Positions 680 through 61,820 of a DNA stretch of 64,000 nt are shown here, one piece after another. The stretch lies in NCBI GenBank assembly GCA_025812035.1, contig GCA_025812035.1_4719.1. The stretch is one strand, 5' to 3'. How positions within the stretch are numbered: position 1 is the first letter of the stretch; each line of letters starts with the position of its first letter. Position numbers and translations under genes: made by a program. The stretch comes from a phage. The notes under the pieces were generated by a model that saw only the letters and a program-made list of their open reading frames with translations, searched no databases and was not told the origin of the DNA.

Positions 680-818
680 TTGGGACTCCTACGTAGGGAA
701 ATCTTGGCGGGTGATCATGTCCGCCATTTACCTTCTGAATCATTAATTCAGAATGCGGAATATGAAGCAAGGCTTCATACCCAAGTCAAAAGATAACCGG
801 ATGTTAACAGCATAATCA

Positions 819-848
819 CCTCCTCCAACCCGTAAGGGAAGGAGGAGG
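819..848 (-). terminator. GNRA-loop hairpin, family copy 1 (CCTCCTCC-AACCC-GTAA-GGGAA-GGAGGAGG)
   Basis: Perfect 8-9 bp G/C stem with A.A internal mismatch and GTAA loop, just 3' of the minus-strand gene ending at 859; no strong U-tract. Confidence 0.6.
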
Positions 849-858
849 GTTATGGTGG

Positions 859-2148: not shown

Positions 2149-2157
2149 GTTAGTTCC

Positions 2158-3474: not shown

Positions 3475-3522
3475 GTGTTGTCTCCAGTAACAATTCAAAA
3501 GATAAACCAGAACGGCATAAAC

Positions 3523-3554
3523 CCCTCTCCCAACCCGTAAGGGAAGGGAGAGGG
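3523..3554 (-). terminator. GNRA-loop hairpin, family copy 2 (CCCTCTCCC-AACCC-GTAA-GGGAA-GGGAGAGGG)
   Basis: Same architecture with compensatory changes in the outer stem; 3' of the gene ending at 3577. Confidence 0.6.
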
Positions 3555-3576
3555 AATATATCAGTTTATTAACCGA

Positions 3577-4905: not shown

Positions 4906-4969
4906 AATTTGTTTCCTTTACAATAAATTGCACATTAGCTAATGCGGCTTAAGTGAACCGTTAGCTCAC

Positions 4970-5500
4970 TTAAAAGCCCTTAAAACCCGGTGCCATAGGT
5001 TGCCCAAACACCGCATTCAAAGTACATATGATGTCCTGGATGCCATTGTCCCAATGGAGCCAAGTACGCACCATCTCTTCGTCTGACAACGTGATATAAC
5101 TCATAAGTTTACCGCTGCTTTCCAGACGTTGGTGGGAACTTAATGATTGACGATCTGACCAGTTATCAATCAATTGTCCAGCAATCTGTACGTTCGTGTC
5201 TCGTCTACCCGTATGAATAAACCGTAGCGTATCACGGATAAACTCCAGACTGGTGAAGTTCAGATTTGGGTTATGGCTGTTCATTTCCACCCAGTCGGTA
5301 ATGGGGTACATCAAACGATAAAGGGTGGAAAGAACCTGACGTTCATATTTCCAGTCGTCGAGAGGAGTACCGTCAACCAGACGCTGATACAGACTAACAA
5401 CGTCACGATCGAAGTTCTCTTGGCGTTTTACACCGTTAACAGGAAAACCAAAGAACCCGGTACCGTATAACGTTAAAGGGACGTCACGAAGTGCACTCAT
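4970..5500 (-). CDS. Hypothetical protein, 176 aa
   Basis: ORF with ATGA stop/start overlap to the upstream gene (5497-5500), suggesting translational coupling. Confidence 0.55.
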   Translation of the reverse strand: MSALRDVPLTLYGTGFFGFPVNGVKRQENFDRDVVSLYQRLVDGTPLDDWKYERQVLSTLYRLMYPITDWVEMNSHNPNLNFTSLEFIRDTLRFIHTGRRDTNVQIAGQLIDNWSDRQSLSSHQRLESSGKLMSYITLSDEEMVRTWLHWDNGIQDIICTLNAVFGQPMAPGFKGF

Positions 5501-6399
5501 ACAGCCGCCTCTTCTTTTCGTTTGATATCATAACGAAGTTTCTTCAGTCGGTCTTCGTGATATTCGATCTGCTGTTGGATTTTCGGATCGTTACCTGCAT
5601 TCTGTTGCTTTTGCTTCAGCGACAAAATCCAATACTCCAACGCCTGGGCTTCTTCTTTGGCTGCCTGTAACGATGCTTCTTCACGCTCGCTGCGCCAGAT
5701 ACGGAAACGGTAAACAAGCGTGTCGGTTACATCACCATTAGCCCATGAACCCATACGCATCGGGTCGGTGTTACCTGCATTATACAGACCGTTACCAACG
5801 CCGTCTTCATCAGAAACCACAACATCCGGGATTTTATCCAACCCAGCCAGGATCTGTTGTTTCTGCCCACACAACACTTCGGTGGCAACGGCGAAACCGT
5901 ACATATTGGCGGTCAGGTAAGCAATCTCATTTTTGGTGAAGAATTCACCAAGTGCTTTATCACCACCTGGCATGCTTTCACAGATGACTGTTGCACGAAG
6001 CAACGTACGGGCATAGCTAACGTAGAAGCCCAGGGACTCAACAAGACGTACCAGAGCGGCTTCTTTGAAACTTAGACCGTCAGCAGCGACATCGATTTCC
6101 AGGTTTTTATTAACACGTTTAACGATTTCTGGAATCAGGTCAACCGCATTACGTAGTGCTAAGTGAACATTTTCGACCCAGTTTCCAGAACGAACGCGGG
6201 TTAGGCGTTGATGTAGATCCTTATCAGCAAGTTTCCATAACGCGCTTTCTCCCTTCTGGAGAAGCGAAGCGGATGTCTCGTAGTAAGGAATCGCGGTGTT
6301 GTTGATTTCGTCGCGGATTGATTCAAGTGCGTCAGCAACACCGGTGCGTTTAAAAAGCGGTTTCAGACCGCGAATGAATTCTTTAAAATCAATTGCCAT
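5497..6399 (-). CDS. Hypothetical protein, 300 aa
   Basis: Long ORF in the same operon-like run; Lys/Glu-rich coiled-coil-like C-terminus. Confidence 0.6.
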   Translation of the reverse strand: MAIDFKEFIRGLKPLFKRTGVADALESIRDEINNTAIPYYETSASLLQKGESALWKLADKDLHQRLTRVRSGNWVENVHLALRNAVDLIPEIVKRVNKNLEIDVAADGLSFKEAALVRLVESLGFYVSYARTLLRATVICESMPGGDKALGEFFTKNEIAYLTANMYGFAVATEVLCGQKQQILAGLDKIPDVVVSDEDGVGNGLYNAGNTDPMRMGSWANGDVTDTLVYRFRIWRSEREEASLQAAKEEAQALEYWILSLKQKQQNAGNDPKIQQQIEYHEDRLKKLRYDIKRKEEAAV

Positions 6400-6438
6400 G
6401 AGTGAGCACCTATGCTATTTCGAAACAGGTTACGTGTA

Positions 6439-7545
6439 TTAACGAATCTGTGGGACGTTTCCGGTACGGAGCGCCTGGAGGATCGTCAGAAGATCGGAAC
6501 CCGAGGTTGACGAACTGTTTGATTTTTCCAGTTGTTTGAAGCTTACGGTGGTCCCTTGATCCAGACTGTGGAAATAGAAGGTCACCATCTCCTCAGCTTC
6601 GTCGATGATGATCAGTTGCATTGCAAGGGCTTCAGCCATGACTTTCTGGCGTGTATTGTAATCAGATAAACGACGTCCGATCTTACGCTCGATGGCTTCC
6701 TGGTTAGCCTTAGAGATGATATAGGTGGAGGCGATTGCTCCAGAAGAAGGGATCTTTGTGCTCGCTGCCGCTTTTGCAGCATTGATGCGCGCAGCATTCA
6801 CCGCTTTACGGATACCCTCTTTATCCATGCGTGAGATTCGTTTATGTTCACGAACCAAATCGCTAAGCAGGATCATATCACTCCAGAAAGATAGCTCACC
6901 GGCCATCATGCGATGCCAGCGTGCTCGCCAGGTGTTCTGTGGGCCACCGATTGCTAAAATCGATGCAAGCACTTCCGCTGGTGAACTTGCGATACGCATG
7001 CTGATGTTCAACGGCATTTTCATTGTTGCCTGACCGTCGGTCAGCGTCACCGTTAAGAACTTGCCGGTGACCGCGTTTGCATCTTTGTTCAGCAGTTCGA
7101 TCGCAGCGTCGCTGGCTCCAACATCGATGCTATTTTTTTGTTTCCCCTGCAGGTTGAATCCTTTGTCGTCAAGGAAAACAAGGCTTTTGCTATCCGCACT
7201 TTCCAGTGCTAATTTAACAGCCTTATCCATCAGGTTAGCGTTACGATTTGGGTTAACACGACCCAGCGTTTTATCTACACTGATGTTACCCACCTGCATG
7301 ATGGTGTTCAACGCCAGTAAATAGAACCCGGTATACATGTTTTCAGCGGTGCGCATGCAGTTGCCTAACGCATTGCGTGCGTCGCTATAATACAACTCAC
7401 GTTCAAAGATCAGCGGTGCGATAACGCGTGAAGGTTGTGAGAGTTCAACCAGCGAACCTGGTTGGATAAGTTTATTGACTTCGTAGACTTTAGCGATACC
7501 GGACGCAACAACGTTAACAGCGTCGGCAATTTCTGATGCTACCAT
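6439..7545 (-). CDS. Hypothetical protein, 368 aa (possible virion protein)
   Basis: Long ORF, ATG preceded by AAGGA; first gene of the minus-strand run; no recognisable motif. Confidence 0.6.
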   Translation of the reverse strand: MVASEIADAVNVVASGIAKVYEVNKLIQPGSLVELSQPSRVIAPLIFERELYYSDARNALGNCMRTAENMYTGFYLLALNTIMQVGNISVDKTLGRVNPNRNANLMDKAVKLALESADSKSLVFLDDKGFNLQGKQKNSIDVGASDAAIELLNKDANAVTGKFLTVTLTDGQATMKMPLNISMRIASSPAEVLASILAIGGPQNTWRARWHRMMAGELSFWSDMILLSDLVREHKRISRMDKEGIRKAVNAARINAAKAAASTKIPSSGAIASTYIISKANQEAIERKIGRRLSDYNTRQKVMAEALAMQLIIIDEAEEMVTFYFHSLDQGTTVSFKQLEKSNSSSTSGSDLLTILQALRTGNVPQIR

Positions 7546-11782: not shown

Positions 11783-11803
11783 AACAAAATAGCAAGTACA
11801 TAA

Positions 11804-11835
11804 CCCTCCTCCAACCCGTAAGGGAAGGAGGAGGG
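11804..11835. terminator. GNRA-loop hairpin, family copy 3, between convergent genes
   Basis: CCCTCCTCC-AACCC-GTAA-GGGAA-GGAGGAGGG between the plus gene ending 11782 and the minus gene ending 11845. Confidence 0.65.
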
Positions 11836-11844
11836 AATATGTTG

Positions 11845-14800
11845 TTATCTTACGTTAGTACTATTCTGCTGTTCGCTGAACCAACCATAAACCTTGAGAT
11901 CGGTACCGTATTTCAGTGCGATATACGCATTCAGTGCTGCACAGAACAAAGACGCGAATGCCCATACCAGCGAAGGATCGACATCTTCCGTTACCGCCAC
12001 CAGGGTAGCCTCTGGTTCCCATGACGGAGAACTGTCTGTAAACGTCGTGAACCATGCCCGACGTTGTTCTTCAGTGGTAAAGTCGCTATGTGGCTCCAAC
12101 GCTTCTTTTGCCAAACGTCGATATTCGGTCATATGAATCGCGAGAGCCGCTGAGCTATCATATTTGCATTCATAGTTCGGATCAACAGCACAACAGAGTT
12201 CTGCGGAATCCAACAAAGCAAGCGCTTGTTTGATGCTGTCGGTGGTGCCTGCACTATAAAGCTCGATAGACTGCGAAAGCTTTTCACAGAACGCATTTAA
12301 CGCGGCAGGATCGGATACCTGAAGGTCAAGACCTAATGTCCACGGATAGTTACTGAACACACCCGTAAACTGCGGCATAACACCCAACAGATGTTGTCCG
12401 ATTACAGCGCGGTTATAAGTAGCCCGATTATAGACTTGAAACGCGGCCTCCAATGCTTGGTTATAATGACGACGAAGTTCGTCACGCGTGTTGCGGAATC
12501 TGTTCGCCGCGAGACTCGTAGCTGCGACGCTACAAACATCGTAACCAGTGGACGAGAGCACAACGTCGTTAAGATCGAACGCTTCCTGTTTCAACGATCC
12601 ATTAACAGCTACCGCTTCGCTGTTCGCTTTATCGACAACCGTACTCAACGCGTTGATATAACGTTTAGCGCGGACTTCCAACCATTGTGCAATACCGAGA
12701 ATATCTACCGCGGCTTTAGCAAGATCGCGTGCGTTCACGATTTCGTTCTTCAAGGCACCCAACCCTTTATTCTCAGGCGAAGAGGCTTGTTGACGAATCA
12801 TGCTGTTTAACATGGTAAGCAGATTATCCAACTCATGTCCGCTGACCTTGTTACGCGCATCGGTAATCGGCCCTTGCAGGAATTTACGGCAACCATCGTT
12901 GTATCGAATCAGTTTATCCACATCGATCGACTCGTTAGCGGATTCCTTGAACTGATTCTTCAATTCTTCACGGTAATCATGAATTTCACTTGCAAGATTG
13001 TCGACAGTGATACCATCATGTTCGAGAAGAACTTTATTGAAGTTACCTTTCTCGAATGCAAGAGCAAGACCTTCGCGAATCTTAGCGAGTTTATCCTGAT
13101 CGAGTTCACGACCGTTTGATAACTCTTTCACTTCCGAGCTGATTAATGCTGCAACGTTACCCAGATTGTCGGTAACCCCTTTGAATGTCCCCGACCAAAT
13201 CGTTCCCGCTTCAGCATATTTCGCAATGGTCTGAATACCGACGGTATGCAATGACGCTAAACGTTTCTTCGTGCCTTCGGTAAGCAGTGCGTCTTTAGCT
13301 CGCGTAAGCTGGCTGTTATTAGCTTCCGCTTGCTGAATCGCTGCTTTCGCATTTCCATTACGCCAGCTCTTAACCAACCAATCAACCAGACGTTTTAGGA
13401 TGTTGACGGTATATTCCATCGTCCGCCGTAACGTCTCCCACGCGCTTTCAGCGGTATAAATGCCGTACCCTTCCATCGTCAACGCTTTCAAGCTTGTTTG
13501 ACGTGCCAGCCATTCTACCGTTGCAGAGCAAACGTTTACTAATGCTTCCAGGTAGTTGTAATAGACGTCTGTTGCCGACGTTTCGTTGAACTTTGAATGC
13601 AGATAGAACTGATCGTAAAGTTCGTCGTCATCACCGAAGGCATCATAGTTCCACAGTTCTGTATCACAACCTGTGCCGCAGAAGACGTCAGCTGTCGTAA
13701 ACTCTTTAAGCGCTTTAGCGGCGTCATTTGTCAGGAATTTACCTGTTTCAACTACATCGTCGACATTAAGTTTGGGGAGTTCGTCGGTGACCGGCTCTTC
13801 CAACATCAGCATATTGAAGAATGTGCTATACTTGTATCCGAGCCATTTTGGATAGCTGCTTTCAGGGATCGTAGACAGCGGCTTGATTTTCTTGGCTTCA
13901 GCCAACGTGTCTTTTGCGACCTGATATTGGTTTTCCCCAGCCTTGACGCGACGTAATGCTTTTTCTTCCAACTGCTTGAGTTTGGTATGTCGTGCTTGTG
14001 CTGGAGCTTCAACAAGTTTTTGTACGGACCGCATTGCTGATATCGCTTCTTTTAATACGATCATCGGCATACGAACTTTACCGTCGTCGAAACTAAGAGC
14101 GCGAGCGACACGTTTACTTACGACAGGCTTATCATGGATATTTCGTTCCACCCACGATTTGTTTGCGTAAGTTTGAGCGATCTGCTGTTGGATATTTTCA
14201 AGGTATTTCCAGCCGTTGGAAGCTTTGTTATCCAGAAGCGGATTCGGTCCCTTCTTATCGAAAAGTTTCAGAATCGGACCAAAGAAACCTTCCTGTACGA
14301 GTTCGATACGCGTGTATCCGTCAGCCGCTTCGATTTCTTCTTGGGTTTTGTCCCAGAGCTGTTCACTACGGACAGCAGTAGCTGTTTCAGATACCGACAT
14401 AACAAGCTCGGCAACAACTTCAGCGCAGGTCAGTACGGTACGCACGCATTGCAGTAGCATACGCTGGTAAACGATACGTGCGTTTTGTAGACGTGCGATA
14501 ACCGCTAAATAACCGATATTGTCAAGACGTTCGTCGGCTTGAGCAGAGTCAACACGTTCTATCAGTTGTTTCACCAACGCGGCTGTTTCCGGATAATCGT
14601 TCACGACGTCACGCATAATTCGTGATGCGAAAACCGCGGTACCTAAAACGTTAAGAAGTGTTTTACCGTCCCATTCTTTTGGTGTCGCTACCGATTCGGT
14701 AGGGATGAGATTTCCCGCTTGGTCGAAGTACGGCATAAGGACATTGATATCCGTAGACGGTACTGCGGTGACTGCGTTGTACTCTTCATCCGCACCATCG

Positions 14801-27136: not shown

Positions 27137-27562
27137 TCAATTCAGTGATGCATACAACGCATAACGACTGTAGATCTCAACCGCTGGCCCGTTATGCGTT
27201 AACAGACCATCTCGGTTGTAATACTGGAAAAAGGAATAGCGTTTGTCGAAGTGATAAACGAAAGCAATGTCTTTACCGTTAAGACCCGTGATGCGTGGTC
27301 TGTTTTTATCTAGCAATGCTTTGACTTTTAACAGTGTTGCCGCACGTGCTTTAACATTAGGGATTAATCCATCACAGTCGATATAAACCGTGTAACCTGT
27401 TTCAGATGTTGCGACGGTTGTATTGCGATTGACGCGGAAGATTTTTGTTTTGTATGTATTATCTTCAAGGATTGGGTTTTGTTTTTCGTATTTTCGTTTA
27501 TGCAGAAATCCTACAACGGTAATATAGTTAGCGGTAATATGTCCGGTTATAGCCTGTAACAT
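27137..27562 (-). CDS. Hypothetical protein, 141 aa, preceded by the conserved ~95-bp leader element
   Basis: ATG with AAGAGGA SD inside the repeated leader (27563-27660). Confidence 0.55.
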   Translation of the reverse strand: MLQAITGHITANYITVVGFLHKRKYEKQNPILEDNTYKTKIFRVNRNTTVATSETGYTVYIDCDGLIPNVKARAATLLKVKALLDKNRPRITGLNGKDIAFVYHFDKRYSFFQYYNRDGLLTHNGPAVEIYSRYALYASLN

Positions 27563-27660
27563 TTTGACATCCTCTTATATTGGATTGATTACAGTTATCT
27601 TAAATAGGCGATAAGATATCTTGCTCTTATCACCTTAGTAATATAGCCGTGAAATAAATT
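27563..27660 (-). promoter_or_regulatory. Conserved ~95-bp leader/promoter element, copy 1
   Basis: Minus-strand order: box TTTCACGGCTATATTA (contains -10-like TATATT), a 5'-UTR hairpin, then AATCAATCCAATATAAGAGGATGTCAA-ATG; the same blocks recur at 51772-51862. Confidence 0.55.
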
Positions 27661-27689
27661 GTGTTAACAAGAAATAAAACAGCATAGAA

Positions 27690-34351: not shown

Positions 34352-34367
34352 CGCAAAGGTAACATAA

Positions 34368-34399
34368 CCCTCCTCCAACCCGTAAGGGAAGGAGGAGGG
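34368..34399. terminator. GNRA-loop hairpin, family copy 4, between convergent genes
   Basis: Identical core to copy 3, between the plus macro-domain gene (ends 34351) and the minus gene ending 34417. Confidence 0.65.
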
Positions 34400-34416
34400 A
34401 ATATGCTGTTATGTTA

Positions 34417-34800: not shown

Positions 34801-35370
34801 TCAACGATTCTTCATCACTTTACCCAGGCTTTCGATATTATCCCAAAAGCGATTTTTACTTGGTGCGTCGCCAACGATAACCGACATCAAATCACGACGT
34901 TCGCGACTGATGATACCCTGCGATTTCCAGATCACCATCGTCCAACATGCAGCCAGAACGAACAGATGGTTAATACTCGGTTTGGTTTGTGCGATGAACG
35001 CAAGCCATGCCCAGATACCGGTGTATACTATCGTCACTAAAAAGAGAGAGATTGTTGCAACGACAACAACGAAGTTTTGGATGGCTGGCTGATTGGCATT
35101 ATCCTGAAAAGCGGTAAGATCGGGAAGATTACCTTCAACGGAACTCGTTTCATCGATTTCCAAGTCTTCGATTTCTTTTCGTGTGTCAGGAGCTAATCCA
35201 GCATCATCAAGATGCTTCTTTAACCGCTGAATACTTAATCGCTGACCAACAGGAATGCTGATGTTGTCGTAACTATTAAGCGCATCAACCAGGGAACGTC
35301 CGTCAACGAGAACCAAGCTCGCAGTACCCATCGTCTGCGGTTTTATTTTGTAAAGGTCTTTTACTTTCAT
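34801..35370 (-). CDS. Hypothetical membrane protein, 189 aa
   Basis: Two or three hydrophobic helices (VVVATISLFLVTIVYTGIWAWLAFIA, LFVLAACWTMVIW). Confidence 0.55.
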   Translation of the reverse strand: MKVKDLYKIKPQTMGTASLVLVDGRSLVDALNSYDNISIPVGQRLSIQRLKKHLDDAGLAPDTRKEIEDLEIDETSSVEGNLPDLTAFQDNANQPAIQNFVVVVATISLFLVTIVYTGIWAWLAFIAQTKPSINHLFVLAACWTMVIWKSQGIISRERRDLMSVIVGDAPSKNRFWDNIESLGKVMKNR

Positions 35371-38026: not shown

Positions 38027-38668
38027 TTAGATGTACTGCTTACCGCCCACGAAGGAAGTCAGCCAGTTCCCTGAAACAAGCTGCGATACCCAACCGGGTA
38101 CCGCTCTACCATTCTGGCTCATGATGTTACCACACCAACCAGGGAATCCGGGACGGATATAATAGAAAGTTAAATTGTAGAGATGGCAATTCCACACCGC
38201 AACGTTATGTTTACCAGAAACCGCTTTAAAGACAAACGCAACGGGTAAAGGCGACGATAGCAATTCGGTCACAGGGACGGCTGACCAATTCGCATTCGCG
38301 TTCCACGGTTGCCAGGTATGGCTACGCGAGTCGCAAAATACGTTACCGTTGTTACCGCGCCCACCCGCATTCCACCACAGCGACGGACTCATGTTCTTAA
38401 GTGAGGTAAATTGCTGCGGTGGAATATTAGGAATAATAACAGGGTTGGTACCTTGCCCATGTTTCTTTTCTTTTGCGTTCACATACCCGCTTATCGATTC
38501 GAGGTATTTGACACCAGGATAATTGTTCTGGACTTGTGTCGCAATATCACGAACATCAAACGTCCAGCAGATCATGGTGTTGTAGTAAGCATCGGTGTTG
38601 TCGTACCATGCGTTACCATCTTGTAAACGTGCGCCACTATTCGGTGTTTTATCTGTGTTTATAGCCAT
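38027..38668 (-). CDS. Hypothetical protein, 213 aa, conserved-C-terminus pair member A
   Basis: C-terminal ~40 aa (FYYIRPGFPGWCGNIMSQNGRAVPGWVSQLVSGNWLTSFVGGKQYI) nearly identical to the 38780 protein; N-terminus divergent. Confidence 0.55.
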   Translation of the reverse strand: MAINTDKTPNSGARLQDGNAWYDNTDAYYNTMICWTFDVRDIATQVQNNYPGVKYLESISGYVNAKEKKHGQGTNPVIIPNIPPQQFTSLKNMSPSLWWNAGGRGNNGNVFCDSRSHTWQPWNANANWSAVPVTELLSSPLPVAFVFKAVSGKHNVAVWNCHLYNLTFYYIRPGFPGWCGNIMSQNGRAVPGWVSQLVSGNWLTSFVGGKQYI

Positions 38669-38770: not shown

Positions 38771-38793
38771 TAACTTCAATTAAATTGAAGTTA
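38771..38793. promoter_or_regulatory. 23-bp palindrome TAACTTCAATT-A-AATTGAAGTTA overlapping a stop codon
   Basis: Perfect 11-bp inverted arms at the 3' end of the 38780 gene, adjacent to a second hairpin (CCGGATG...CATCCGG). Confidence 0.35.
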
Positions 38794-39496
38794 GATATTG
38801 TTTACCTCCAACAAACGACGTTAACCAATTACCTGAAACAAGTTGCGATGCCCAGCCAGGCACTGCCCTACCGTTCTGGCTCATCACGTTACCTGCCCAT
38901 CCCGGAAAACCCGGCCGGAAAATATATACTTGAATATGTGTTAAAGCGTTATCATTACCACCGCCAACAGCAACGTTACGACTCCCAGATGACGGGAAAT
39001 ATTCTTTTAAGAACAGAGGATCGGTTGCTAATAAAGATGCGGGCCAAGGGTTCGCGGATGCATCAACATCGAATTCGGTCCATCGCCATTTACGTCCCGT
39101 GTCGAACCATGTCGATGTACCGCCTCCACGCACTGCAAGATTGCGTGCGTCGCGGGCATTGTAAATTGATTCGATGTTACGCCACCCACCTTTTGCGGCG
39201 TTTGCCGCATAGCAAATCGCATTACCACCATTCTTCTTTTCGTAAACAGTTCGTTTGATATGAACACGATCGATGAACGCTTCACCGTATTTGTTGACGA
39301 GCGTTTGTGCGATATCACGAAGATCGTGCATGTGAAAAGCGATGTCTTCGTTATGGAACCATGTTGTCGGGTTCCAGACGGTACCGTTTGGTTCGGCACA
39401 CATCGATCGGATATTGTTGCGTTGATTAACCGCGATAAAACCCATTGTATACCTCGTTCCTATTCTCAAAAAGGAAATTTCATACGATGACGCCAT
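38780..39496 (-). CDS. Hypothetical protein, ~238 aa, conserved-C-terminus pair member B
   Basis: ORF track 38780..39532 begins inside the hairpin; ATG (MASSYEISF) follows AAGGAGG that forms the hairpin 3' arm. Confidence 0.55.
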   Translation of the reverse strand: MASSYEISFLRIGTRYTMGFIAVNQRNNIRSMCAEPNGTVWNPTTWFHNEDIAFHMHDLRDIAQTLVNKYGEAFIDRVHIKRTVYEKKNGGNAICYAANAAKGGWRNIESIYNARDARNLAVRGGGTSTWFDTGRKWRWTEFDVDASANPWPASLLATDPLFLKEYFPSSGSRNVAVGGGNDNALTHIQVYIFRPGFPGWAGNVMSQNGRAVPGWASQLVSGNWLTSFVGGKQYLTSI

Positions 39497-39500
39497 AGCA

Positions 39501-39530
39501 GCTCCTCCTTCCCTTACGGGTTGGAGGAGC
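39501..39530 (-). terminator. GNRA-loop hairpin, family copy 5, inverted orientation; 3' arm carries the SD of the next gene
   Basis: Plus strand GCTCCTCC-TTCCC-TTAC-GGGTT-GGAGGAGC is the reverse complement of the other copies; 3' of the lipoprotein gene; minus-strand AAGGAGG lies 7 nt before the ATG at ~39496. Confidence 0.6.
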
Positions 39531-39538
39531 ATACTTAA

Positions 39539-40045
39539 TTACTCGCTGATAACCTCAACGGAATTGGGATCAGCGATCATCGCACGGTCAGTAGAACAAT
39601 TGAAGAAGACCATGCCGACACCATCGCCGTTCGAGTTCAGGGTTGAACTTACGTAAGACAGGGTTGGTTTATTCATGCGGTAGAAGCGTTCGCTGGTAGC
39701 GGTATTGAACCCCAGATCAACGTAGTCTTTCACCGTGGTATACAGCTGCGTGGATTCGAAGACGGTTACCGGAGAGTCAACGGTAAATTGACTACCTTCA
39801 TCCACAACCAGAACCTTATCGTTCCAGATTTCAGTGGTTGAAAACTTCGGTTTCCAATGTTCGAATTCCTGGGTTGCACCCCAGCAAGAATACACAGCAA
39901 GATTGCTGTTCTTCTCAACAGGTTTCAAACCCACCAGTTGTGTCAGGTCTTTATCCAGGTTCGGTAAGCCTTCCAGCGTAGCACACCCGCCCAGAGAAAG
40001 CACCATCAACATACCAAGAACGATCGCGCAAAGTTTCTTCATCAT
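39539..40045 (-). CDS. Putative lipoprotein, 168 aa (candidate superinfection-exclusion factor)
   Basis: Signal peptide with lipobox MLMVLSLGGC; immediately downstream of the fibre and Tfa genes. Confidence 0.65.
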   Translation of the reverse strand: MMKKLCAIVLGMLMVLSLGGCATLEGLPNLDKDLTQLVGLKPVEKNSNLAVYSCWGATQEFEHWKPKFSTTEIWNDKVLVVDEGSQFTVDSPVTVFESTQLYTTVKDYVDLGFNTATSERFYRMNKPTLSYVSSTLNSNGDGVGMVFFNCSTDRAMIADPNSVEVISE

Positions 40046-44711: not shown

Positions 44712-46466
44712 TTATGCTGCTACGTATCCAGGCCAACGTTCTCTTGGCCAGTTTGTTGCACCCTGTCCGACGGTGTCTTTACCAGAAATGACGTTACTTA
44801 CATCCCATCCACTCAGATCCTGATTGAATGCGGTGTTCTCGCGCATCATGAGATCGATCTTACGTAGTGAGTGGGTATTCCAACCAGATATGTCTTGGTT
44901 GAATGCTTTATTGTAGGCAAACATGTTAGACACGTTCTGTAATTTTGACGTGTTCCAACCACTGATGTCGCTATTGAACGACGTGCTTGAGAACATGCTG
45001 CTCGCATCAACAAGATTGTCGGTTTTCCAATTAACCACTTTATCGCCGTCAAATGCATTGCTGCTGCTGAACATAAAACTCATATTGCTAGCTTTGGACA
45101 CATCCCATTTATCTAACCCTTTACCGACGAACTCATTACATGCCGAGAACATCCAGCTCATATCGGTAACCCGACTCACGTTCCATTTGCTGAAGTCAAG
45201 GTTAAGTTTCTGACACCCTAAGAAGGTCTTATACATGTTGGTGATGCGACTAACATCCCACTCTTGGATGTTAGGGTCGTTAAGCGTCGTTAAGTAGTTG
45301 AACAATGTCGCTAACGACGTCCATTTCTCTGGAATCCGGTTTGGTACCGTACGAAGCGATGCAAGGTTGTTGGTTGACGGAGAGCAGAACATACCGTTAT
45401 CCCAATTTACGATTTCCGTAATTTTGGACCCTTTGATCGTCTGAGTGGTATTACCATCTTTCACTATACCCGTAGCAACGATGGTATATTCACCGGTGCC
45501 TGCATAATCGTGGGCGTAGGCACCGTTACTTGAGGTCTCCGTTACTTTATTCCCATCACCCCAATCGATATTAACTTTATCCCACCCACTTAGGTTGAAC
45601 TGTACTTTGCCTCCGGTAGCTTTTAGGATGTATTTACCTCCATTGTCGGTAAAATAGCAGACAACCATTGAACCGTACAGATTACCTATCCGCCAATCAT
45701 CCTTTTCTGTCACTGCGATTTGCGCTAAGCCACGCTGTACGAAGAGTACTGTGCGGTTCTCGTCAGTCTGTAATGTGGCTAATGCTTGGGCCTTATCGTC
45801 CTCGCTAATTTCATTAGCGCTCACTAAAACGCTTAACATTCTTTCGAAGTATTCGATGGGTAATTGACGTCCTACAGACTTATCAACCGACGGTTCAGCA
45901 AGATCGCCCAACGCTGCAGTGGTGGCCAGCATCAACGAACCCTTGGTCATATCTGTTTCTTGTAGGTAGTGCAGTCCTGTAATCTGGTACGCTTGAATAA
46001 TCGTAATCAGGTTCAGCGTATCGTTAACGACCTGTACTTGTAAATGTCCAGACCATACGTAGCTGCTTTCGGCAATTGGTAGTTCGACCGACTGGATACC
46101 TGATGTTTCAAAGGTGATCTTCTTGTTAAGATCGGTTTCCAGGAAATCAACAGCGAGGTCAAAATTTATACCGTACTTCTCAGCGATAGAATCCACGATG
46201 TTTCTGAAAGCAACGTCATTATTTACGATGAAACGTAATGGGATTCCTGCAAACGCTCTAGCAATGTCTCGACGAACATACGTGAGCGACTGCTCGAAGA
46301 AATAGGGGCTACCATCTCGCGGTTTAATGGTCACCTGACATACTTCGGGATATTCAGCTGGGATTAACGACACGAATTCAACATCGGATTCTTTCAATGA
46401 AAGCATATTCTTCCGGTTTACTAATGCCAGAAGATCGGCTTTCCAACCAGGATAAACTGTAGACAT
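44712..46466 (-). CDS. Putative receptor-binding protein with BspA/DUF285-type leucine-rich repeats, ~585 aa
   Basis: ORF track 44712..46550; start at MSTVYPGWKAD after GGAG. Shared N-terminal anchor; C-terminal repeats WNVSRVTDMSWMFSAC, WDVSKASNMSFMFSSS, WNTSKLQNVSNMFAYN, WDVSNV. Confidence 0.65.
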   Translation of the reverse strand: MSTVYPGWKADLLALVNRKNMLSLKESDVEFVSLIPAEYPEVCQVTIKPRDGSPYFFEQSLTYVRRDIARAFAGIPLRFIVNNDVAFRNIVDSIAEKYGINFDLAVDFLETDLNKKITFETSGIQSVELPIAESSYVWSGHLQVQVVNDTLNLITIIQAYQITGLHYLQETDMTKGSLMLATTAALGDLAEPSVDKSVGRQLPIEYFERMLSVLVSANEISEDDKAQALATLQTDENRTVLFVQRGLAQIAVTEKDDWRIGNLYGSMVVCYFTDNGGKYILKATGGKVQFNLSGWDKVNIDWGDGNKVTETSSNGAYAHDYAGTGEYTIVATGIVKDGNTTQTIKGSKITEIVNWDNGMFCSPSTNNLASLRTVPNRIPEKWTSLATLFNYLTTLNDPNIQEWDVSRITNMYKTFLGCQKLNLDFSKWNVSRVTDMSWMFSACNEFVGKGLDKWDVSKASNMSFMFSSSNAFDGDKVVNWKTDNLVDASSMFSSTSFNSDISGWNTSKLQNVSNMFAYNKAFNQDISGWNTHSLRKIDLMMRENTAFNQDLSGWDVSNVISGKDTVGQGATNWPRERWPGYVAA

Positions 46467-46620
46467 AAGCACTCCAATCATGGGGCGGTAACCGCACCCA
46501 ACGGTTAAATTGTCGATTATGGTCGTTGCTGATAAGACGACCATAACCAACGATGTTTAATATGTAGTATATTGATATCATGACGTTATGGGGATCTAAG
46601 TCATACCATGGAGACGGCGA

Positions 46621-48046: not shown

Positions 48047-48165
48047 TTTCTATTCCTCAAACAAAAGATTGTCTTTTAACGCGACATGATTACAAGTACA
48101 CAAGTTACTGAATTTCTGTAAAAGTTAATTTTCGTAAAATAAAAGAAAACGTGTCCGTGTTTCCT

Positions 48166-48525: not shown

Positions 48526-48550
48526 CCCTTCCCGCGTAAGGCAGGAAGGG
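48526..48550 (-). terminator. C-rich/G-rich hairpin containing GTAAGG
   Basis: CCCTTCC-CGCGTAAGGCA-GGAAGGG, 3' of the endolysin gene ending 48565. Confidence 0.5.
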
Positions 48551-48564
48551 TATACGGATTTGTT

Positions 48565-49062
48565 TTACGCGTGTCGTCGTTTACCAAAGAAAATATGATT
48601 GTCTACCACGGTGATATTGGTAGCGTGTTTTTTGAAGTGTTTAGGGCGAAGATGTTTCGCGTTAAAGAATACGGCTCCTCGTGTTGGATCGGCTTTACGG
48701 TAAGCAACAATGTCGTTATTGCGCAATGTTGCGACCTCTCGTGCTATTGCTCTTGCTCGCTCAAAAGCAGCATGATCACGTATGACGATTCGTTGTTGTC
48801 TTGCCCAGGGGAATTGACCTCTTTGCAGTACGACGTCTCTGACGTTCGTAGGGAATCGGTAGTCCATAGATCGATTATGTATTAAAAACGCCACGGAGTA
48901 TTGCCCTCTTACAGATTCGCCCCTGGCTTCCATATACACAGCACATGCGACGATCTCTTTCCGGCAATCGATTCTAGGTCCTGCGTTCACCGATGCTTGA
49001 CTGAACGGTGCGATAAGCAACATAACAAGCCCTAAAACCAACGTGTGTAAAATACCTTTCAT
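48565..49062 (-). CDS. Secreted cell-wall hydrolase (SleB family), candidate endolysin, 165 aa
   Basis: Signal peptide MKGILHTLVLGLVMLLIAPFSQA; ACAVYMEARGESVRGQYSVAFLIHNR and VLQRGQFPW match the SleB/CwlJ hydrolase signature. Confidence 0.75.
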   Translation of the reverse strand: MKGILHTLVLGLVMLLIAPFSQASVNAGPRIDCRKEIVACAVYMEARGESVRGQYSVAFLIHNRSMDYRFPTNVRDVVLQRGQFPWARQQRIVIRDHAAFERARAIAREVATLRNNDIVAYRKADPTRGAVFFNAKHLRPKHFKKHATNITVVDNHIFFGKRRHA

Positions 49063-49315
49063 CTTAATAACCTCACGATAAGGTGCTGTCCACTGGCGTC
49101 ATGATAACGCATCCCGTCTATCGGGTTGTTCTATTCAGCGGGCAGCAGGTTAGCGTCAGATGTTTGCCCGACATCCACGACAGAAATAAATGGTACTGAA
49201 AATGCGGTCTCCTCTGGTTTGGCAATAAACATAACGTTGGATAACAGAACCCATTTTCCGCATCCAACGCGGTAAAGGCGTACATCGTTTGAATTCATAT
49301 AGTTTCTCAAAGATG

Positions 49316-49627
49316 TTAACCTCTACCGTCAAGCCATAAGTTGTACTTATCCCGAACGTATGGCTCACGATAAATACGTCGATAGACTTGATGTGGTATA
49401 AACTTGCAATGTACGAGTTCGTCGCTTAATTTCTGACGTCGTTCCATACCGTTGTGTATACGGCGTATCTCCCGGATATTAAAGGTTGTTTTATTCAAGA
49501 GAATAGACATAATGGCAGATCGATGATCTAGATCAAAGATTGACATCAGGCTTCGTATCTCACGTAAAACAACTTCTCTATCGACAAGGATGCGGTTATT
49601 GAACTTAAGATTCTCGGCGATACCCAT
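49316..49627 (-). CDS. Hypothetical protein, ~100 aa (start uncertain)
   Basis: ORF track 49316..49684 overlaps the upstream gene; internal Met chosen; weak support. Confidence 0.3.
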   Translation of the reverse strand: MGIAENLKFNNRILVDREVVLREIRSLMSIFDLDHRSAIMSILLNKTTFNIREIRRIHNGMERRQKLSDELVHCKFIPHQVYRRIYREPYVRDKYNLWLDGRG

Positions 49628-49976
49628 AACCTTCACCTTCGACACGTCGACATGCCGGTAAAAATAAACACCAGCTTGTTGCACTGAGGATCGTCATTGC
49701 GATGATATCTGCGACATCACTTAGTCGAGCACCAGCTTGCCACATGACGAGTATAAAAAGAACGTATGCGAATCCATACCAGACAAACCGTTTGATGTTA
49801 CGTGTCGACCAAGTACAAATATACAAAAGGGGAAGTTGTCCTATAACACTAACGATGTTTCGGATAACATAATAGGCGCGTTCCGTCGTTGCCTCGAAAT
49901 CGATGTTCGTTGCAGAAATCCCAATCAATATAAAAGTGATAAAGCAATAGATTTTTGCGTACGTTTTTAAACTCAT
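49605..49976 (-). CDS. Small multi-pass membrane protein, 123 aa (holin/antiholin candidate)
   Basis: Three or four hydrophobic helices; near the endolysin gene. Confidence 0.5.
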   Translation of the reverse strand: MSLKTYAKIYCFITFILIGISATNIDFEATTERAYYVIRNIVSVIGQLPLLYICTWSTRNIKRFVWYGFAYVLFILVMWQAGARLSDVADIIAMTILSATSWCLFLPACRRVEGEGYGYRRES

Positions 49977-49991
49977 AACTTTTCCCGTTCG

Positions 49992-50225
49992 TTATTTGCG
50001 TTTCCCTATACTCCTCAACAATGTGACGATAACGAATACCGCTGTCATCAAGAAGAGGAACCATAACCCTACGTTAATTCGGGCGGCGGGTTCATCTACC
50101 ATGAAGAACATCGTTCCACAAAACCCAATAACCATCCAGGTTAAGACCATCCCTGTTAATCCCCGTAGTAGCATATGCCCCATCATGAACTCCTTCTTAC
50201 TTTTTCTGATAAAGCGACGATTCAA
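49992..50225 (-). CDS. Small two-helix membrane protein, 77 aa (holin-like)
   Basis: Two hydrophobic helices (LTGMVLTWMVIGFCGTMFF, GLWFLFLMTAVFVIVTLL) and charged C-terminus RSIGKRK. Confidence 0.5.
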   Translation of the reverse strand: MNRRFIRKSKKEFMMGHMLLRGLTGMVLTWMVIGFCGTMFFMVDEPAARINVGLWFLFLMTAVFVIVTLLRSIGKRK

Positions 50226-50359
50226 GTTTTAGAAACATCGCTAACGCGAATGCGATTATTATCGCACGTATCCACATACCTCCTTGACAACTGTTGTACA
50301 ACATAAAGACCAGAGCGATGCCGCCCATATGCAGGCGGCACTTATCGAACAGTGTGGGT

Positions 50360-50587
50360 TTATACATAGGAAATTAATCGTTGAATGATTTTTACTTTGC
50401 CTTTACCTGGGCCTTTCTTGCGACGATTCAACAGACGGATACGGTTTCCAATTACGGAATCGCCATCATAATCAGCACGTAACTGTGGTGGGAGAGCAAG
50501 ATGTTCGCGATTGACACCCGGGTTGTTATAAAAACGATTGAAACTTAAAAGATGGTTAGTTGGAATCATTGTATTGTCCTTATTCAA
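50360..50587 (-). CDS. Hypothetical basic protein, 75 aa
   Basis: ORF; Arg/Lys-rich; no hydrophobic helix. Confidence 0.4.
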   Translation of the reverse strand: MNKDNTMIPTNHLLSFNRFYNNPGVNREHLALPPQLRADYDGDSVIGNRIRLLNRRKKGPGKGKVKIIQRLISYV

Positions 50588-50944
50588 TTATTTACCCAGA
50601 TAGAGATATTCAGCGCCCTGAACAACGCCGGTTGTTGGATCAACCAGTACGCGAACCCGTGCGTAGGTCTTGAAAGAGGGATTGAAAACTTCGAAGTCAG
50701 CCACTTTCAATTTCACGCTAGGGTTGATAGGGTTCTTAACACCCGGAAGTTCTTTCGGTAACCCGAAATCGACTCCATCTTCTTCAAGGTCTGCTGGCGT
50801 CATGTTCTCCATGGCCATGTAGACCGCTTTTGCTTTATCGTAAACTTCTGGGCTATCCAGCAACCCAGCCTGTGCTGAACCGACAACACCACCGAACAGA
50901 ATAGCAACAGCAACAAACAATTTCGCTAACGTTTTCATGATCAT
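50588..50944 (-). CDS. Secreted protein, 118 aa
   Basis: Signal peptide MKTLAKLFVAVAILFGGVVGSAQA. Confidence 0.55.
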   Translation of the reverse strand: MIMKTLAKLFVAVAILFGGVVGSAQAGLLDSPEVYDKAKAVYMAMENMTPADLEEDGVDFGLPKELPGVKNPINPSVKLKVADFEVFNPSFKTYARVRVLVDPTTGVVQGAEYLYLGK

Positions 50945-50973
50945 CTCCTTAAGAGTAAATGGTACAATACTTA

Positions 50974-51396
50974 TTAACGTACGGCAGCAACGCTACCAGC
51001 ACATGCCTGAATATCATCTGTATTTACGATGATGGTTTCGTTAAACGCACGAATACGTGCACGACGTGCTTCTTTAAGGCTAGCAATTGCGTTAGCAGCT
51101 TGATCTGTATTCGCAAGGCTAATAACCGGGATCAAACGCATATCGGGACTGCAGATATTCAATGCTTGGTACACACGTCCGTTAATTCCTACGGTATCAG
51201 ACATCGGATAGTGCGCACGACATTGAAATTGACCCATGACAACAAGCGAACGATCTGAGATACCAATCTGATAACGACCATCTTCACTGTAGGCGTAGCA
51301 GTTTTGACCACGAGCCATCCAGTTAGCTTGTGCTTGTGTGCTAACAAAAGCCAGGGTGGTGACGATAGCAAATACGATATTTTTGAACAGTTTCAT
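50974..51396 (-). CDS. Secreted protein, 140 aa
   Basis: Signal peptide MKLFKNIVFAIVTTLAFVSTQAQA; four Cys. Confidence 0.55.
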   Translation of the reverse strand: MKLFKNIVFAIVTTLAFVSTQAQANWMARGQNCYAYSEDGRYQIGISDRSLVVMGQFQCRAHYPMSDTVGINGRVYQALNICSPDMRLIPVISLANTDQAANAIASLKEARRARIRAFNETIIVNTDDIQACAGSVAAVR

Positions 51397-51420: not shown

Positions 51421-51447
51421 ATCGGTATAAAGCCCCCCATTAGGGGG
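51421..51447 (-). terminator. Short G/C hairpin with flanking T-rich run
   Basis: CCCCCC-ATTA-GGGGG with T-rich minus-strand sequence after it; 3' of the gene ending 51454. Confidence 0.45.
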
Positions 51448-51453
51448 ACCTGA

Positions 51454-51771
51454 TTAGTTTGCACGTAAGAAATGACCCAGAACCGTTACGATTGGGAACA
51501 GTCCTGTGACGGTATTATCACCCGAAAACATCATGTTTGAGCCGTTAACGGTGATGAAGCGGATGTCGGTTGCGGACCCATCAATAGCGACAAAACGCAT
51601 TGAGTTCGGTGGAAGATCCTCAACAACATCCTCGAGGTATTCGCGATTTTCAAAGGCTTCTTTAACACGACGCATGAAACGAATCAAGGTTCCTTCCGCG
51701 TCGGCTTCCAAATGACCTAAGATATCGCGATTGTTGCGAATAGCGAATACAGCCATTTTAAACATACACAT
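51454..51771 (-). CDS. Hypothetical protein, 105 aa, preceded by second copy of the conserved leader
   Basis: ATG with AAGAGGA SD inside the repeated leader (51772-51862). Confidence 0.5.
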   Translation of the reverse strand: MCMFKMAVFAIRNNRDILGHLEADAEGTLIRFMRRVKEAFENREYLEDVVEDLPPNSMRFVAIDGSATDIRFITVNGSNMMFSGDNTVTGLFPIVTVLGHFLRAN

Positions 51772-51862
51772 CTTGACATCCTCTTATATTGGATTGATTG
51801 CTAATAATTCAAGGTGAAGCTAATTACTGCATTGCTTCACCTAGGTAATATAGCCGTGAAAA
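51772..51862 (-). promoter_or_regulatory. Conserved ~95-bp leader/promoter element, copy 2
   Basis: Same TTTCACGGCTATATTA box and identical 27-nt SD-proximal block; the hairpin between them differs in sequence (GGTGAAGC...GCTTCACC) but keeps its position. Confidence 0.55.
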
Positions 51863-51879
51863 TTAATGCATTAATCCAT

Positions 51880-59132: not shown

Positions 59133-61820
<2,688 letters not shown>

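Follow-up and report, generated by a model that had tools for sequence, protein, structure and literature searches.

A predicted secreted SleB-type hydrolase in a putative envelope module of a nucleus-forming jumbo phage related to Goslar

Several phages export a muralytic enzyme through the Sec pathway, independently of a holin lesion. Lys44 of the oenococcal phage fOg44 is a secreted endolysin that depends on membrane depolarisation, R21/S21 of phage 21 form a pinholin/SAR-endolysin pair and Lyz of P1 is a secreted/SAR endolysin. A different arrangement is found in the nucleus-forming jumbo phage phiKZ, whose clustered envelope genes encode the i-spanin gp141, the o-spanin gp141.1, the class III holin gp142, the regulator gp143 and the experimentally supported lysis endolysin gp144 (PMC12894885). 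Outside phages, the spore cortex enzyme SleB of Bacillus has an N-terminal PG-binding domain and a PepSY partner, YpeB, encoded in the same operon (for the YpeB model, see bioRxiv 10.64898/2026.06.01.729290). Large virulent phages of enterobacteria also commonly encode signal-peptide SleB-like hydrolases (T5-like, rV5-like, Phapecoctavirus and Arash). Other lytic enzymes coexist with them where documented: T5-like phages have lys and a holin (PMC3326045), Phapecoctavirus has a Phage_lysozyme (PMC10793346) and Certrevirus has two other peptidoglycan hydrolases (PMC7344957). One of these SleB-like proteins, CB7_83, has a signal peptide and was toxic in E. coli (PMC7344957).

Here, we analysed a block of genes that may be a lysis region in an E. 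coli phage related to Goslar. The window is the whole 64,000-nucleotide stretch of DNA, and the block and its surroundings are as follows.

48526..48550 (-): GC-rich hairpin followed by TTTATGCTG, terminator-like by sequence, closing the operon
48565..49062 (-): predicted Sec-exported SleB/CwlJ-family hydrolase, 165 aa (PF07486, PHROG 938, 4F55/4FET alignment)
48586..48921 (-): Hydrolase_2 catalytic domain, hydrolase residues 48-159 (Pfam)
about 48916-48966 (-): hydrolase motif Y43-M-E45-A-R-G-E49 and conserved Cys33/Cys40 pair, just upstream of the domain
48994..49062 (-): hydrolase signal peptide, residues 1-23, predicted SPase I cut SQA/SV (n/h/c and -3/-1 rules)
49131..49298 (-): 55-codon ORF directly upstream of the hydrolase (gene call on Logan/ENA contigs)
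49316..49627 (-): 103-aa basic soluble protein, gp099 orthologue
49605..49976 (-): 123-aa membrane protein, 3-4 predicted TMDs, gp100 orthologue
49992..50186 (-): 64-aa gp101 orthologue with two TMDs, a DEPAAR loop and the basic C-terminal tail RSIGKRK
50197..50367 (-): 56-aa protein, a hairpin of two TMDs; start codon overlapping the 69-aa gene's stop (ATGTATAA)
50360..50569 (-): 69-aa soluble protein, gp102 orthologue
50588..50938 (-): 116-aa gp103 orthologue, acidic and predicted to be secreted (signal peptide residues 1-24, AQA/GL)
50974..51396 (-): 140-aa predicted secreted protein with four Cys, gp104 orthologue, signal peptide residues 1-24, AQA/NW
51431..51450 (-): hairpin GGTCCCCC-TAAT-GGGGGGC followed by TTTATACCG, a terminator-like upstream boundary between the 105-aa gene and the operon
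51838..51861 (-): early-promoter motif of phiKZ type, TTTCACGGCTATATTACCTAGGTG, outside the operon; it precedes the 105-aa gene (51771..51454)

The products of this operon are the hydrolase, two signal-peptide proteins, two two-helix mini-proteins, a protein of about four helices and three small soluble proteins. The initial annotation had the small membrane proteins and the secreted proteins following the hydrolase. Since every gene of the block is on the minus strand, however, both membrane and secreted protein genes sit upstream of the hydrolase gene. The three soluble proteins (69, 103 and 55 aa) had been omitted. At both ends the operon is bracketed by hairpins, and elements of this family (hairpin plus TATG) occur at 3' ends, including those of convergent gene pairs. 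The element was also considered as a late promoter, which was rejected in favour of a terminator because this element is also located between convergent genes. Comparison with the phiKZ motif table in PMC7058600 identified the early-type motif at 51838..51861 as the nearest recognisable promoter to the operon, and a scan for sigma-70 promoters gave nothing useful. Envelope-targeted products are enriched here: by our own rough count, they make up 6 of the block's 10 genes but 4 of about 65 in the rest of the window (Fisher p = 2e-4).

Synteny of the block is kept across seven genomes, with variation only in the 4-TMD gene and in a 114-aa insert in L020. Compared with Goslar, the window phage lacks gp096 and shows other indels, and the 56-aa and 55-aa ORFs were left unannotated in the Goslar RefSeq record. 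Pfam and PHROG scans gave no credible family for any small protein of the block. In tblastn searches of 50,697 phage records, gp104, gp103, gp099, gp101 and the 55-aa ORF matched Goslar alone, and word-indexed protein searches with the hydrolase and gp104 retrieved Goslar-like sequences alone.

The family assignment of the hydrolase is clear: residues 48-159 match Pfam Hydrolase_2 (PF07486) with an E-value of 3.7e-16 and 60 bits (cut-off 27), covering the profile in full (1-100), and PHROG 938 ('endolysin') is a further match. In alignments to the SleB catalytic domains 4F55 and 4FET, its YMEARGE is matched to YGESRGE, a motif YxE(A/S)RGE whose conserved Glu we take to be the catalytic residue, as in SleB. 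The protein is probably a lytic transglycosylase. It is a single-domain enzyme, in which the N-terminal PG_binding_1 domain of SleB is absent. Its orthologue in Goslar, gp098 (YP_009820783), is 91% identical in amino acid sequence, lies in the corresponding operon with the same signal peptide and is annotated as 'endolysin' or 'putative cell wall hydrolase'.

The cleavable-looking signal peptide noticed in the initial annotation was borne out by rule-based reading of the sequence. The N-terminus, MKGILH-TLVLGLVMLLIA-PFSQA/SV, comprises a basic n-region, a Leu/Val-rich h-region of 12-14 residues (7-15 being expected of a Sec signal) and a c-region in which a helix-breaking Pro occupies position -5 and positions -3 and -1 carry small residues. 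Goslar has Gln in place of the n-region Lys. A signal peptide of like kind is kept in the Goslar-like genomes P0001-P0003, L008 and L014, and is also present in the distant phage homologues of Arash, CR9, T5-like EscoHU1 and ESCO5. The mature enzyme is predicted to have 142 aa, a pI of 11 and a charge of +15. From these features the hydrolase very probably reaches the periplasm via Sec, with no holin lesion required; we infer its export, cleavage and enzymatic activity alike.

Homologues of the hydrolase are encoded in 980 phage records. Those in CB7/CR9 (CB7_83/CR9 gp095), T5-like phages (ORF81/EscoHU1_082), ESCO5 (gp207) and Arash (gp62) are 30-45% identical. The Arash, CR9, T5-like and ESCO5 enzymes share with it the Pfam family, the single-domain layout and a Sec signal with an AXA site, and those of Arash and CR9 also the conserved Cys pair and a (Y/F)xEARGE motif. 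The gene neighbourhoods differ. In the window phage the hydrolase gene shares its operon with genes for two secreted proteins and for two or three small membrane proteins, whereas in the CB7_83, T5-like, ESCO5 and Arash phages its gene lies among small soluble, phosphatase or helicase genes.

Among the small membrane proteins, the 123-aa protein is accessory, being missing in L008 and L013 and 49% identical in L018-L020. The product of the gene first read as encoding 77 aa is more likely 64 aa long, starting from the ATG at 50186, 7 nt after AAGGAG. This protein has a class II holin-like topology and is conserved in all relatives. The previously unlisted ORF of about 56 aa was intact in all seven genomes compared, with conservative substitutions and an invariant N-terminal half; a supposed separate ORF of about 26 aa, on the other hand, is residues 31-56 of the same ORF read from an internal in-frame ATG and not a gene of its own. 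Cys27 of the 56-aa protein is Phe or Val in other genomes, so it is not a lipoprotein, and a u-spanin was likewise rejected, given this Cys and a periplasmic loop of about 3 residues. According to hydropathy and positive-inside reasoning, both mini-proteins fit the class II holin/pinholin pattern (small, two TMDs, N-in/C-in, charged C-terminus), and they are plausibly the best holin/antiholin-type candidates in the module. A spanin pair would call for a lipobox outer-membrane lipoprotein gene within or next to a gene for a coiled-coil protein with an N-terminal TMD; no lipobox ORF was found within 48.5-51.4 kb, and the sole one in the window is at 40045-39539.

The most conserved DNA of the locus is an island at about 49125-49335, which contains the 55-codon ORF. 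This leader of the hydrolase had no match in Rfam and a fold z-score of only -1.95, and the sequences were too conserved for covariation. The 103-aa gene, which shares 23 nt with the 3' end of the 123-aa gene, shows an identity of just 56% in other lineages, and the 69-aa protein combines a fast-evolving N-terminal half with an invariant cationic C-terminus (RIRLLNRRKKGPGKGKVKI..RLISYV).

Both proteins initially described as secreted are real ORFs with AQA sites, and their Goslar orthologues gp103 and gp104 have been detected by mass spectrometry, gp104 with six peptides. The mature domain of gp103 was predicted at high confidence to adopt a cystatin/PepSY-like fold of two helices and four strands. 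Neither a Pfam PepSY match nor any other sequence support for PepSY was found, and a Foldseek search of the model against the PDB returned no significant match; the fold is generic. A HMMER profile search with gp103 gave 12 matches in 1.8 billion representatives, with no informative domains; a word-indexed search found two E. coli-labelled homologues besides Goslar-like sequences. The structure model of gp104 was set aside for its low confidence (pLDDT 65). The two proteins are possible modulators in the module. As the initial annotation had stated, the roles of the small membrane and secreted proteins are not readable from sequence; they share one hairpin-bracketed unit with the hydrolase.

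The initial annotation had further placed the secreted hydrolase in the stead of a canonical cytoplasmic endolysin, with the proviso that no other endolysin be encoded elsewhere in the genome. This part fails, because such an enzyme is present in relatives. Goslar gp024 has 211 aa, no signal sequence and the domains Glyco_hydro_108 and PG_binding_3. The three Goslar-like genomes found in IMG/VR all encode it with 92-100% conservation, and one of them also carries the hydrolase operon; an endolysin of this type was present in every Goslar-like genome checked, encoded about 90 kb from the operon. The gp024 locus falls outside the 64-kb window, and its presence in the window phage is therefore deduced from these relatives. 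Judged by their genomes, the operon is not a lysis system that does without an ordinary endolysin.

Set beside the described systems, the operon resembles each of them in part. Its hydrolase shares the predicted Sec-dependent, holin-lesion-independent export of fOg44 Lys44, R21/S21 and P1 Lyz, and small 2-TMD genes are likewise nearby; however, its N-terminus looks cleavable and not SAR-like and, unlike in those systems, relatives of the window phage have a second, cytoplasmic endolysin. As in phiKZ, the phage is of the jumbo, nucleus-forming kind and its envelope genes, including one for a muralytic enzyme, are clustered, but neither a spanin pair nor a single-TMD holin with a large cytoplasmic domain is present in the block, and the phiKZ transglycosylase is soluble, depends on a holin and has a PG-binding domain, whereas the present one is single-domain and predicted to be exported by Sec. 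No phiKZ-like lysis cassette was found around Goslar gp024 either. The catalytic domain is homologous to that of Bacillus SleB, but the operon has neither the PG-binding domain nor, by sequence, a PepSY partner, and the enzyme would act in a Gram-negative periplasm and not in a spore cortex. The modelled fold of gp103 may be a weak echo of the SleB-YpeB pair.

Our preferred reading, with a probability of about 0.45, is that a nucleus-forming jumbo phage of the Goslar type here carries an 'envelope module' bracketed by terminators, and that this module includes an auxiliary muralytic enzyme. Signal peptidase I would cleave the Sec signal peptide of the hydrolase behind SQA and so free a very basic, soluble periplasmic protein of 142 aa, which could therefore attack peptidoglycan without a holin hole. 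It would help to degrade the sacculus beside gp024 rather than replacing it, with the 2-TMD proteins as candidate holin/antiholin-type components and the co-exported gp103 and gp104 as possible modulators. The role in lysis that we infer for the operon, like any holin or inhibitor function in it, is putative. Counting against auxiliary lysis are the early type of the nearest promoter, the lack of a spanin-like gene in or beside the block, the abundance of gp024 in virions (see below) and the holin-less early/metabolism setting of the homologues, which fits a non-lytic role equally well.

Such a role is the essence of a reading that we consider doubtful, in which the block is an envelope-modification or superinfection-exclusion set and the hydrolase remodels peptidoglycan for another purpose, by a logic comparable to that of the small inner-membrane protein Imm and the periplasmic lysozyme inhibitor Sp of T4. 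It would account for six envelope-targeted products amid small, fast-evolving, lineage-specific genes, for gene gain and loss in the region (gp100, gp096 and the 114-aa insert) and for the early-type promoter just upstream. In T5-like, rV5-like, Phapecoctavirus and Arash phages, moreover, the homologous gene lies among small early/metabolism genes with no holin or spanin adjoining; a genomic island of E. coli carries a 54% identical gp103 homologue next to genes of the SGNH/Ape1_N (peptidoglycan O-acetylesterase-like) type; and gp103 and gp104 occur in sufficient amounts to be recovered with purified virions. However, no similarity to Imm, Sp or known exclusion proteins was found by PHROG or Pfam in the small proteins of the block, and a muralytic enzyme is not a known part of exclusion systems. 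We found no mention of Goslar-induced cell bulging in PMC9891218.

It is rather unlikely that the operon is a complete lysis cassette, in which gp024 would serve for entry while a pinholin-type protein (64-aa and/or 56-aa) collapses the membrane potential and so unleashes a Sec-secreted periplasmic endolysin. The hydrolase does share its operon with holin-like mini-proteins, gp024 ends a tail-fibre operon with no membrane-protein neighbour, and fOg44 Lys44 and the phage 21 pair are general precedents. In purified Goslar virions gp024 was present at about 50-120 copies per virion and the SleB-like enzyme was not detected; given this abundance gp024 could be an entry enzyme, leaving the SleB-like one as main endolysin. 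Yet if phiKZ gp144, a lysis endolysin, is also a virion protein, presence in virions does not rule out an endolysin role for gp024; chimallin, PhuZ and host proteins were likewise found in the Goslar virion preparation. In other phages, homologous hydrolases with a signal peptide occur together with endolysins that are proven or likely, the block has no spanin, and no mechanism is known through which depolarisation would switch on an enzyme that is soluble and cleaved in the periplasm of E. coli. In a further reading, the N-terminus would be an uncleaved signal-anchor/SAR segment tethering an inactive enzyme in the inner membrane until depolarisation frees it; the N-terminal hydrophobic segment of a homologue in Pseudomonas phage MIJ3 lacks an obvious cleavage site. 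We regard this as very improbable: a SAR domain is a weakly hydrophobic, Gly/Ala/Ser-rich TMD of about 20 residues, but the core here has only 12-14, is Leu/Val/Ile-rich with one Gly and one Ala (25% G/A/S/T), and is followed by Pro and a textbook S-Q-A/S site kept in all Goslar-like copies, with equally classical AXA sites in the Arash, CR9, T5-like and ESCO5 homologues.

For the most part, our finding describes anew a gene family that is already annotated, here in a somewhat unusual setting. Among nucleus-forming jumbo phages, a defined lysis cassette is available only from phiKZ (published in 2026), with nothing like it in the Goslar-like phages of enterobacteria; the clearest holin-like candidates of the window lie in this operon, alongside a hydrolase predicted to be holin-independent. 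We think it improbable that it is a Sec-driven muralytic system with its own safety catch, in which acidic gp103 (possibly with gp104) would restrain the basic hydrolase, the ultra-conserved 55-codon leader, as gene or RNA, would gate its synthesis and the 2-TMD proteins would act as trigger; if true, the hydrolase and gp103 would parallel, in a phage, the chaperone-inhibitor pairing of SleB and YpeB in Bacillus. Signal-peptide SleB-like hydrolases are found in about a thousand phage genomes and are routinely labelled 'endolysin' without a demonstrated role, and, as Goslar is amenable to knock-down by dCas13d or antisense, a clear answer in this phage would correct or confirm that label widely.

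Over 3.6 kb around the block, the sequence shares 91.5% identity with vB_EcoM_Goslar, an Escherichia phage of 237 kb that belongs to the nucleus-forming, chimallin-encoding jumbo phages, and mapping of these 3.6 kb placed the Goslar equivalent of the window at roughly 62-126 kb. All genes of the block lie on the minus strand and are listed here under the names of their Goslar orthologues.

Genes and boundary hairpins of the operon, in transcription order
51771..51454, minus: gp105 orthologue, 105 aa
51450-51431, minus: terminator-like hairpin, upstream boundary
minus: gp104 orthologue, 140 aa, first gene past the hairpin
minus: gp103 orthologue, 116 aa
minus: gp102 orthologue, 69 aa
minus: 56-aa ORF, absent from the Goslar annotation
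minus: gp101 orthologue, 64 aa
minus: gp100 orthologue, 123 aa
minus: gp099 orthologue, 103 aa
49298..49131, minus: 55-aa ORF, absent from the Goslar annotation
minus: gp098 orthologue, the SleB-type hydrolase, 165 aa
48550-48526, minus: terminator-like hairpin, downstream boundary
minus: gp097 orthologue, 82 aa, past the closing hairpin

Exported or membrane products are encoded by six of the ten block genes, versus ~4/65 elsewhere in the window (p = 2e-4). What the initial annotation observed here is genuine and goes beyond chance, and the two hairpins bracket exactly the interval it had given (48565-51396). GC-rich hairpins followed by (T/A)TATG occur at gene 3' ends throughout the window and are read here as terminators because they are also found between convergent genes. 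A palindromic family of them with (T/A)TATG on both strands (812-866, 3517-3571, 11798-11852, 34362-34416 and others) probably represents bidirectional terminators for phage RNA polymerases. No promoter was recognised for the operon itself. Upstream of the gp105 orthologue, a phiKZ-type early-promoter motif, TTTCACGGCTATATTACNNAGGTG, is present at 51838-51861 and duplicated at 27631-27654 (the phiKZ motif for comparison is TATATTAC; PMC7058600). The motif (TTTCACGGCTATATTAC..AGGTG) and a ~90-nt leader ending in AATATAAGAGGATGTCAA-ATG span 51768-51874 and 27559-27667 on the minus strand, and this duplicated unit precedes two unrelated small genes. Just downstream of the operon, ~48130-48160 is an indel hotspot; Goslar gp096 (166 aa) is missing from the window phage and from the Goslar-like relatives L008 and L013, and is present in the relatives L018-L020.

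The hydrolase matches Pfam Hydrolase_2 across the full profile (E 3.7e-16) as well as PHROG 938, and aligns with the Bacillus SleB catalytic domains (4F55, 4FET) via the YxE(A/S)RGE motif. Its N-terminus, MKGILH/TLVLGLVMLLIA/PFSQA↓SV, is built like a type I signal peptide, all three regions being recognisable by sequence rules, and the mature enzyme is predicted to have 142 aa and a pI of 11. An uncleaved signal anchor or SAR domain is very improbable here; for a SAR anchor, the core lacks the necessary length and contains too much Leu/Val. The signal peptide is kept in other Goslar-like copies, and cleavage sites of the same kind are present in the distant homologues Arash gp62 (PVLA↓SAD), CR9 gp095 (ATALA↓KD), T5-like EscoHU1_082 (NSHA↓TY) and ESCO5 gp207 (VAKA↓EA); thus, the signal peptide is an old trait of the whole family. 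A Cys pair just upstream of the catalytic motif is common to the hydrolase and the Arash and CR9 homologues. Neither the gene family nor its signal peptide is new, and an annotation of the orthologue exists.

The initial annotation took the secreted hydrolase to stand in place of a cytoplasmic endolysin, which is not supported, as Goslar-like relatives encode a signal-less Glyco_hydro_108 protein, gp024. Three peptidoglycan-hydrolase candidates were found in Goslar: gp098, the 2252-aa tail protein gp204 with a lysozyme/chitinase-like domain, and gp024 (211 aa, without signal sequence; NC_048170 17700-18335), whose combination of Glyco_hydro_108 and PG_binding_3 is characteristic of endolysins from phages of Gram-negative bacteria (PMC8223927). 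Conservation of gp024 was 92-100% in three IMG/VR Goslar-like genomes, one of which also has the operon; its presence in the window phage is inferred from these relatives, as the window does not extend to this locus. In Goslar, gp024 is the last gene of a tail-fibre operon, has no membrane-protein neighbours, and its product, packaged or co-purifying, was estimated at ~50-120 copies per virion. That the operon is the sole lysis cassette is unlikely.

Hydrolase homologues were detected in 980 phage records by tblastn. The SleB gene of T5-like phages is located apart from lys and holin (PMC3326045), Phapecoctavirus has a Phage_lysozyme in addition to the SleB-like hydrolase (PMC10793346), and Certrevirus CB7 encodes two further peptidoglycan hydrolases besides CB7_83, a SleB-like protein with a signal peptide and with toxicity to E. 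coli (PMC7344957). The hydrolase gene of Arash, CR9, EscoHU1 and ESCO5 lies amid small hypothetical genes, in some of them with phosphatase, helicase or glycosyltransferase genes nearby, and no annotated holin or spanin was found near it in these four phages.

With regard to the small membrane proteins, the 56-aa ORF was intact in all seven genomes compared, with an invariant N-terminal half and only conservative changes in the second transmembrane domain (TMD). The ~26-aa ORF reported separately by the initial annotation proved to be the C-terminal part of this ORF, read from an internal ATG. A lipoprotein nature of the 56-aa protein was ruled out, as Cys27 is Phe or Val in relatives. For the gp101 orthologue, the ATG that follows AAGGAG is the most probable start, and in this 64-aa form the protein has two TMDs and a basic tail. 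The 123-aa protein (gp100; 3-4 TMDs) is missing from L008 and L013, hence dispensable, and its identity to the L018-L020 versions is no higher than 49%. The 2-TMD proteins of the block are reasonable holin candidates, albeit not the sole ones: further small membrane proteins in Goslar are gp122, gp085 (conserved in enterobacterial chimalliviruses), gp002/003 and gp182. The gp122 orthologue (61509-61793, minus; 94 aa, 2-3 TMDs, very basic C-tail) is holin-like and adjoins the DNA ligase gene; a 189-aa membrane protein with an N-terminal soluble domain of ~95 residues is encoded at 34801-35370 (minus). Nothing similar to the phiKZ cassette gp141-gp144 (PMC12894885) was seen in the block or elsewhere in Goslar.

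As for spanins, Goslar gp189 (234664-235215) is i-spanin-like, with a basic N-terminus, a TMD, a coiled coil and a C-terminal Cys; no lipoprotein (o-spanin) partner of it was found in Goslar. No lipobox ORF was found in or beside the block, and the window as a whole has a single one, the gp088 orthologue (39539-40045, minus; 168 aa, canonical MMKKLCAIVLGMLMVLSLGG↓C), whose gene adjoins a tail-fibre assembly gene. Goslar gp088 ranks near the top in abundance in virion preparations (hundreds of copies, 78% coverage). It may be a lipoprotein that masks the receptor, a contaminant from outer-membrane vesicles or a virion protein of an unusual kind. Near this gene, tandem paralogues (38027-38668 and 38780-39532, minus) have a common C-terminal module, RPGFPGW..MSQNGRAVPGW.SQLVSGNWLTSFVGGKQY, and correspond to the single-copy gp087 of Goslar. 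At 44712-46550 (minus), a 612-aa protein with DUF7941 and DUF285 (leucine-rich-repeat-like) occupies the place of the 276-aa Goslar gp093, a difference that probably reflects variation of a protein associated with the tail fibre and linked to host range.

Conservation within the locus peaks in the ~190 nt from the gp099 stop to the hydrolase leader, a stretch that coincides with the 55-codon ORF. The conserved island (49125-49335, minus) ranked top in ~16 kb of aligned Goslar-like sequence; over the 55-codon stretch, 96.7% of columns were identical in four lineages versus 72% on average across 480 windows, and in a five-genome alignment the conservation stopped exactly at the stop codon. Only seven sites vary, two of them synonymously, and thus the synonymous sites are constrained too. 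The ORF is called as a gene on Logan and ENA contigs, and no match was found in Rfam, Pfam or PHROG. This element may encode a small protein, may serve the hydrolase as a regulatory RNA or leader, or may do both.

The gp104 and gp103 orthologues have signal peptides with AQA↓ sites. Mass spectrometry of purified Goslar virion preparations, which also held host proteins, chimallin and PhuZ, detected six peptides of gp104 and two of gp103; the hydrolase and the remaining block proteins were undetected. Among cultured phages, gp104, gp103, gp099, gp101 and the 55-aa ORF are restricted to Goslar. The structure model of gp104 was too poor for fold reading. When 1.8 billion representatives were searched with a gp103 profile, only 12 relatives were recovered. 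Two more distant homologues of gp103 were noted, one in further Goslar-like contigs (68% identity) and one in an integrase-flanked E. coli genomic island (GCA_013055565.1 contig, 1-6600; 54% identity) beside DUF459, Ape1_N/GDSL (peptidoglycan O-acetylesterase-like), sulfatase-family and integrase genes. In Bacillus, SleB is held inactive by the PepSY domains of YpeB (bioRxiv 10.64898/2026.06.01.729290). Because YpeB inhibits SleB, the acidic, PepSY-like gp103 may be a partner of the very basic hydrolase, an attractive lead and nothing firmer.

A non-lytic envelope or exclusion module is also improbable, if somewhat less so than a sole lysis cassette. In other phages the SleB-like enzyme is typically a second hydrolase. 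Our tentative reading (probability about 0.45) is that the hydrolase would be an auxiliary, holin-independent periplasmic muralytic enzyme, encoded in an operon directed at the envelope, in which the holin may be encoded as well.
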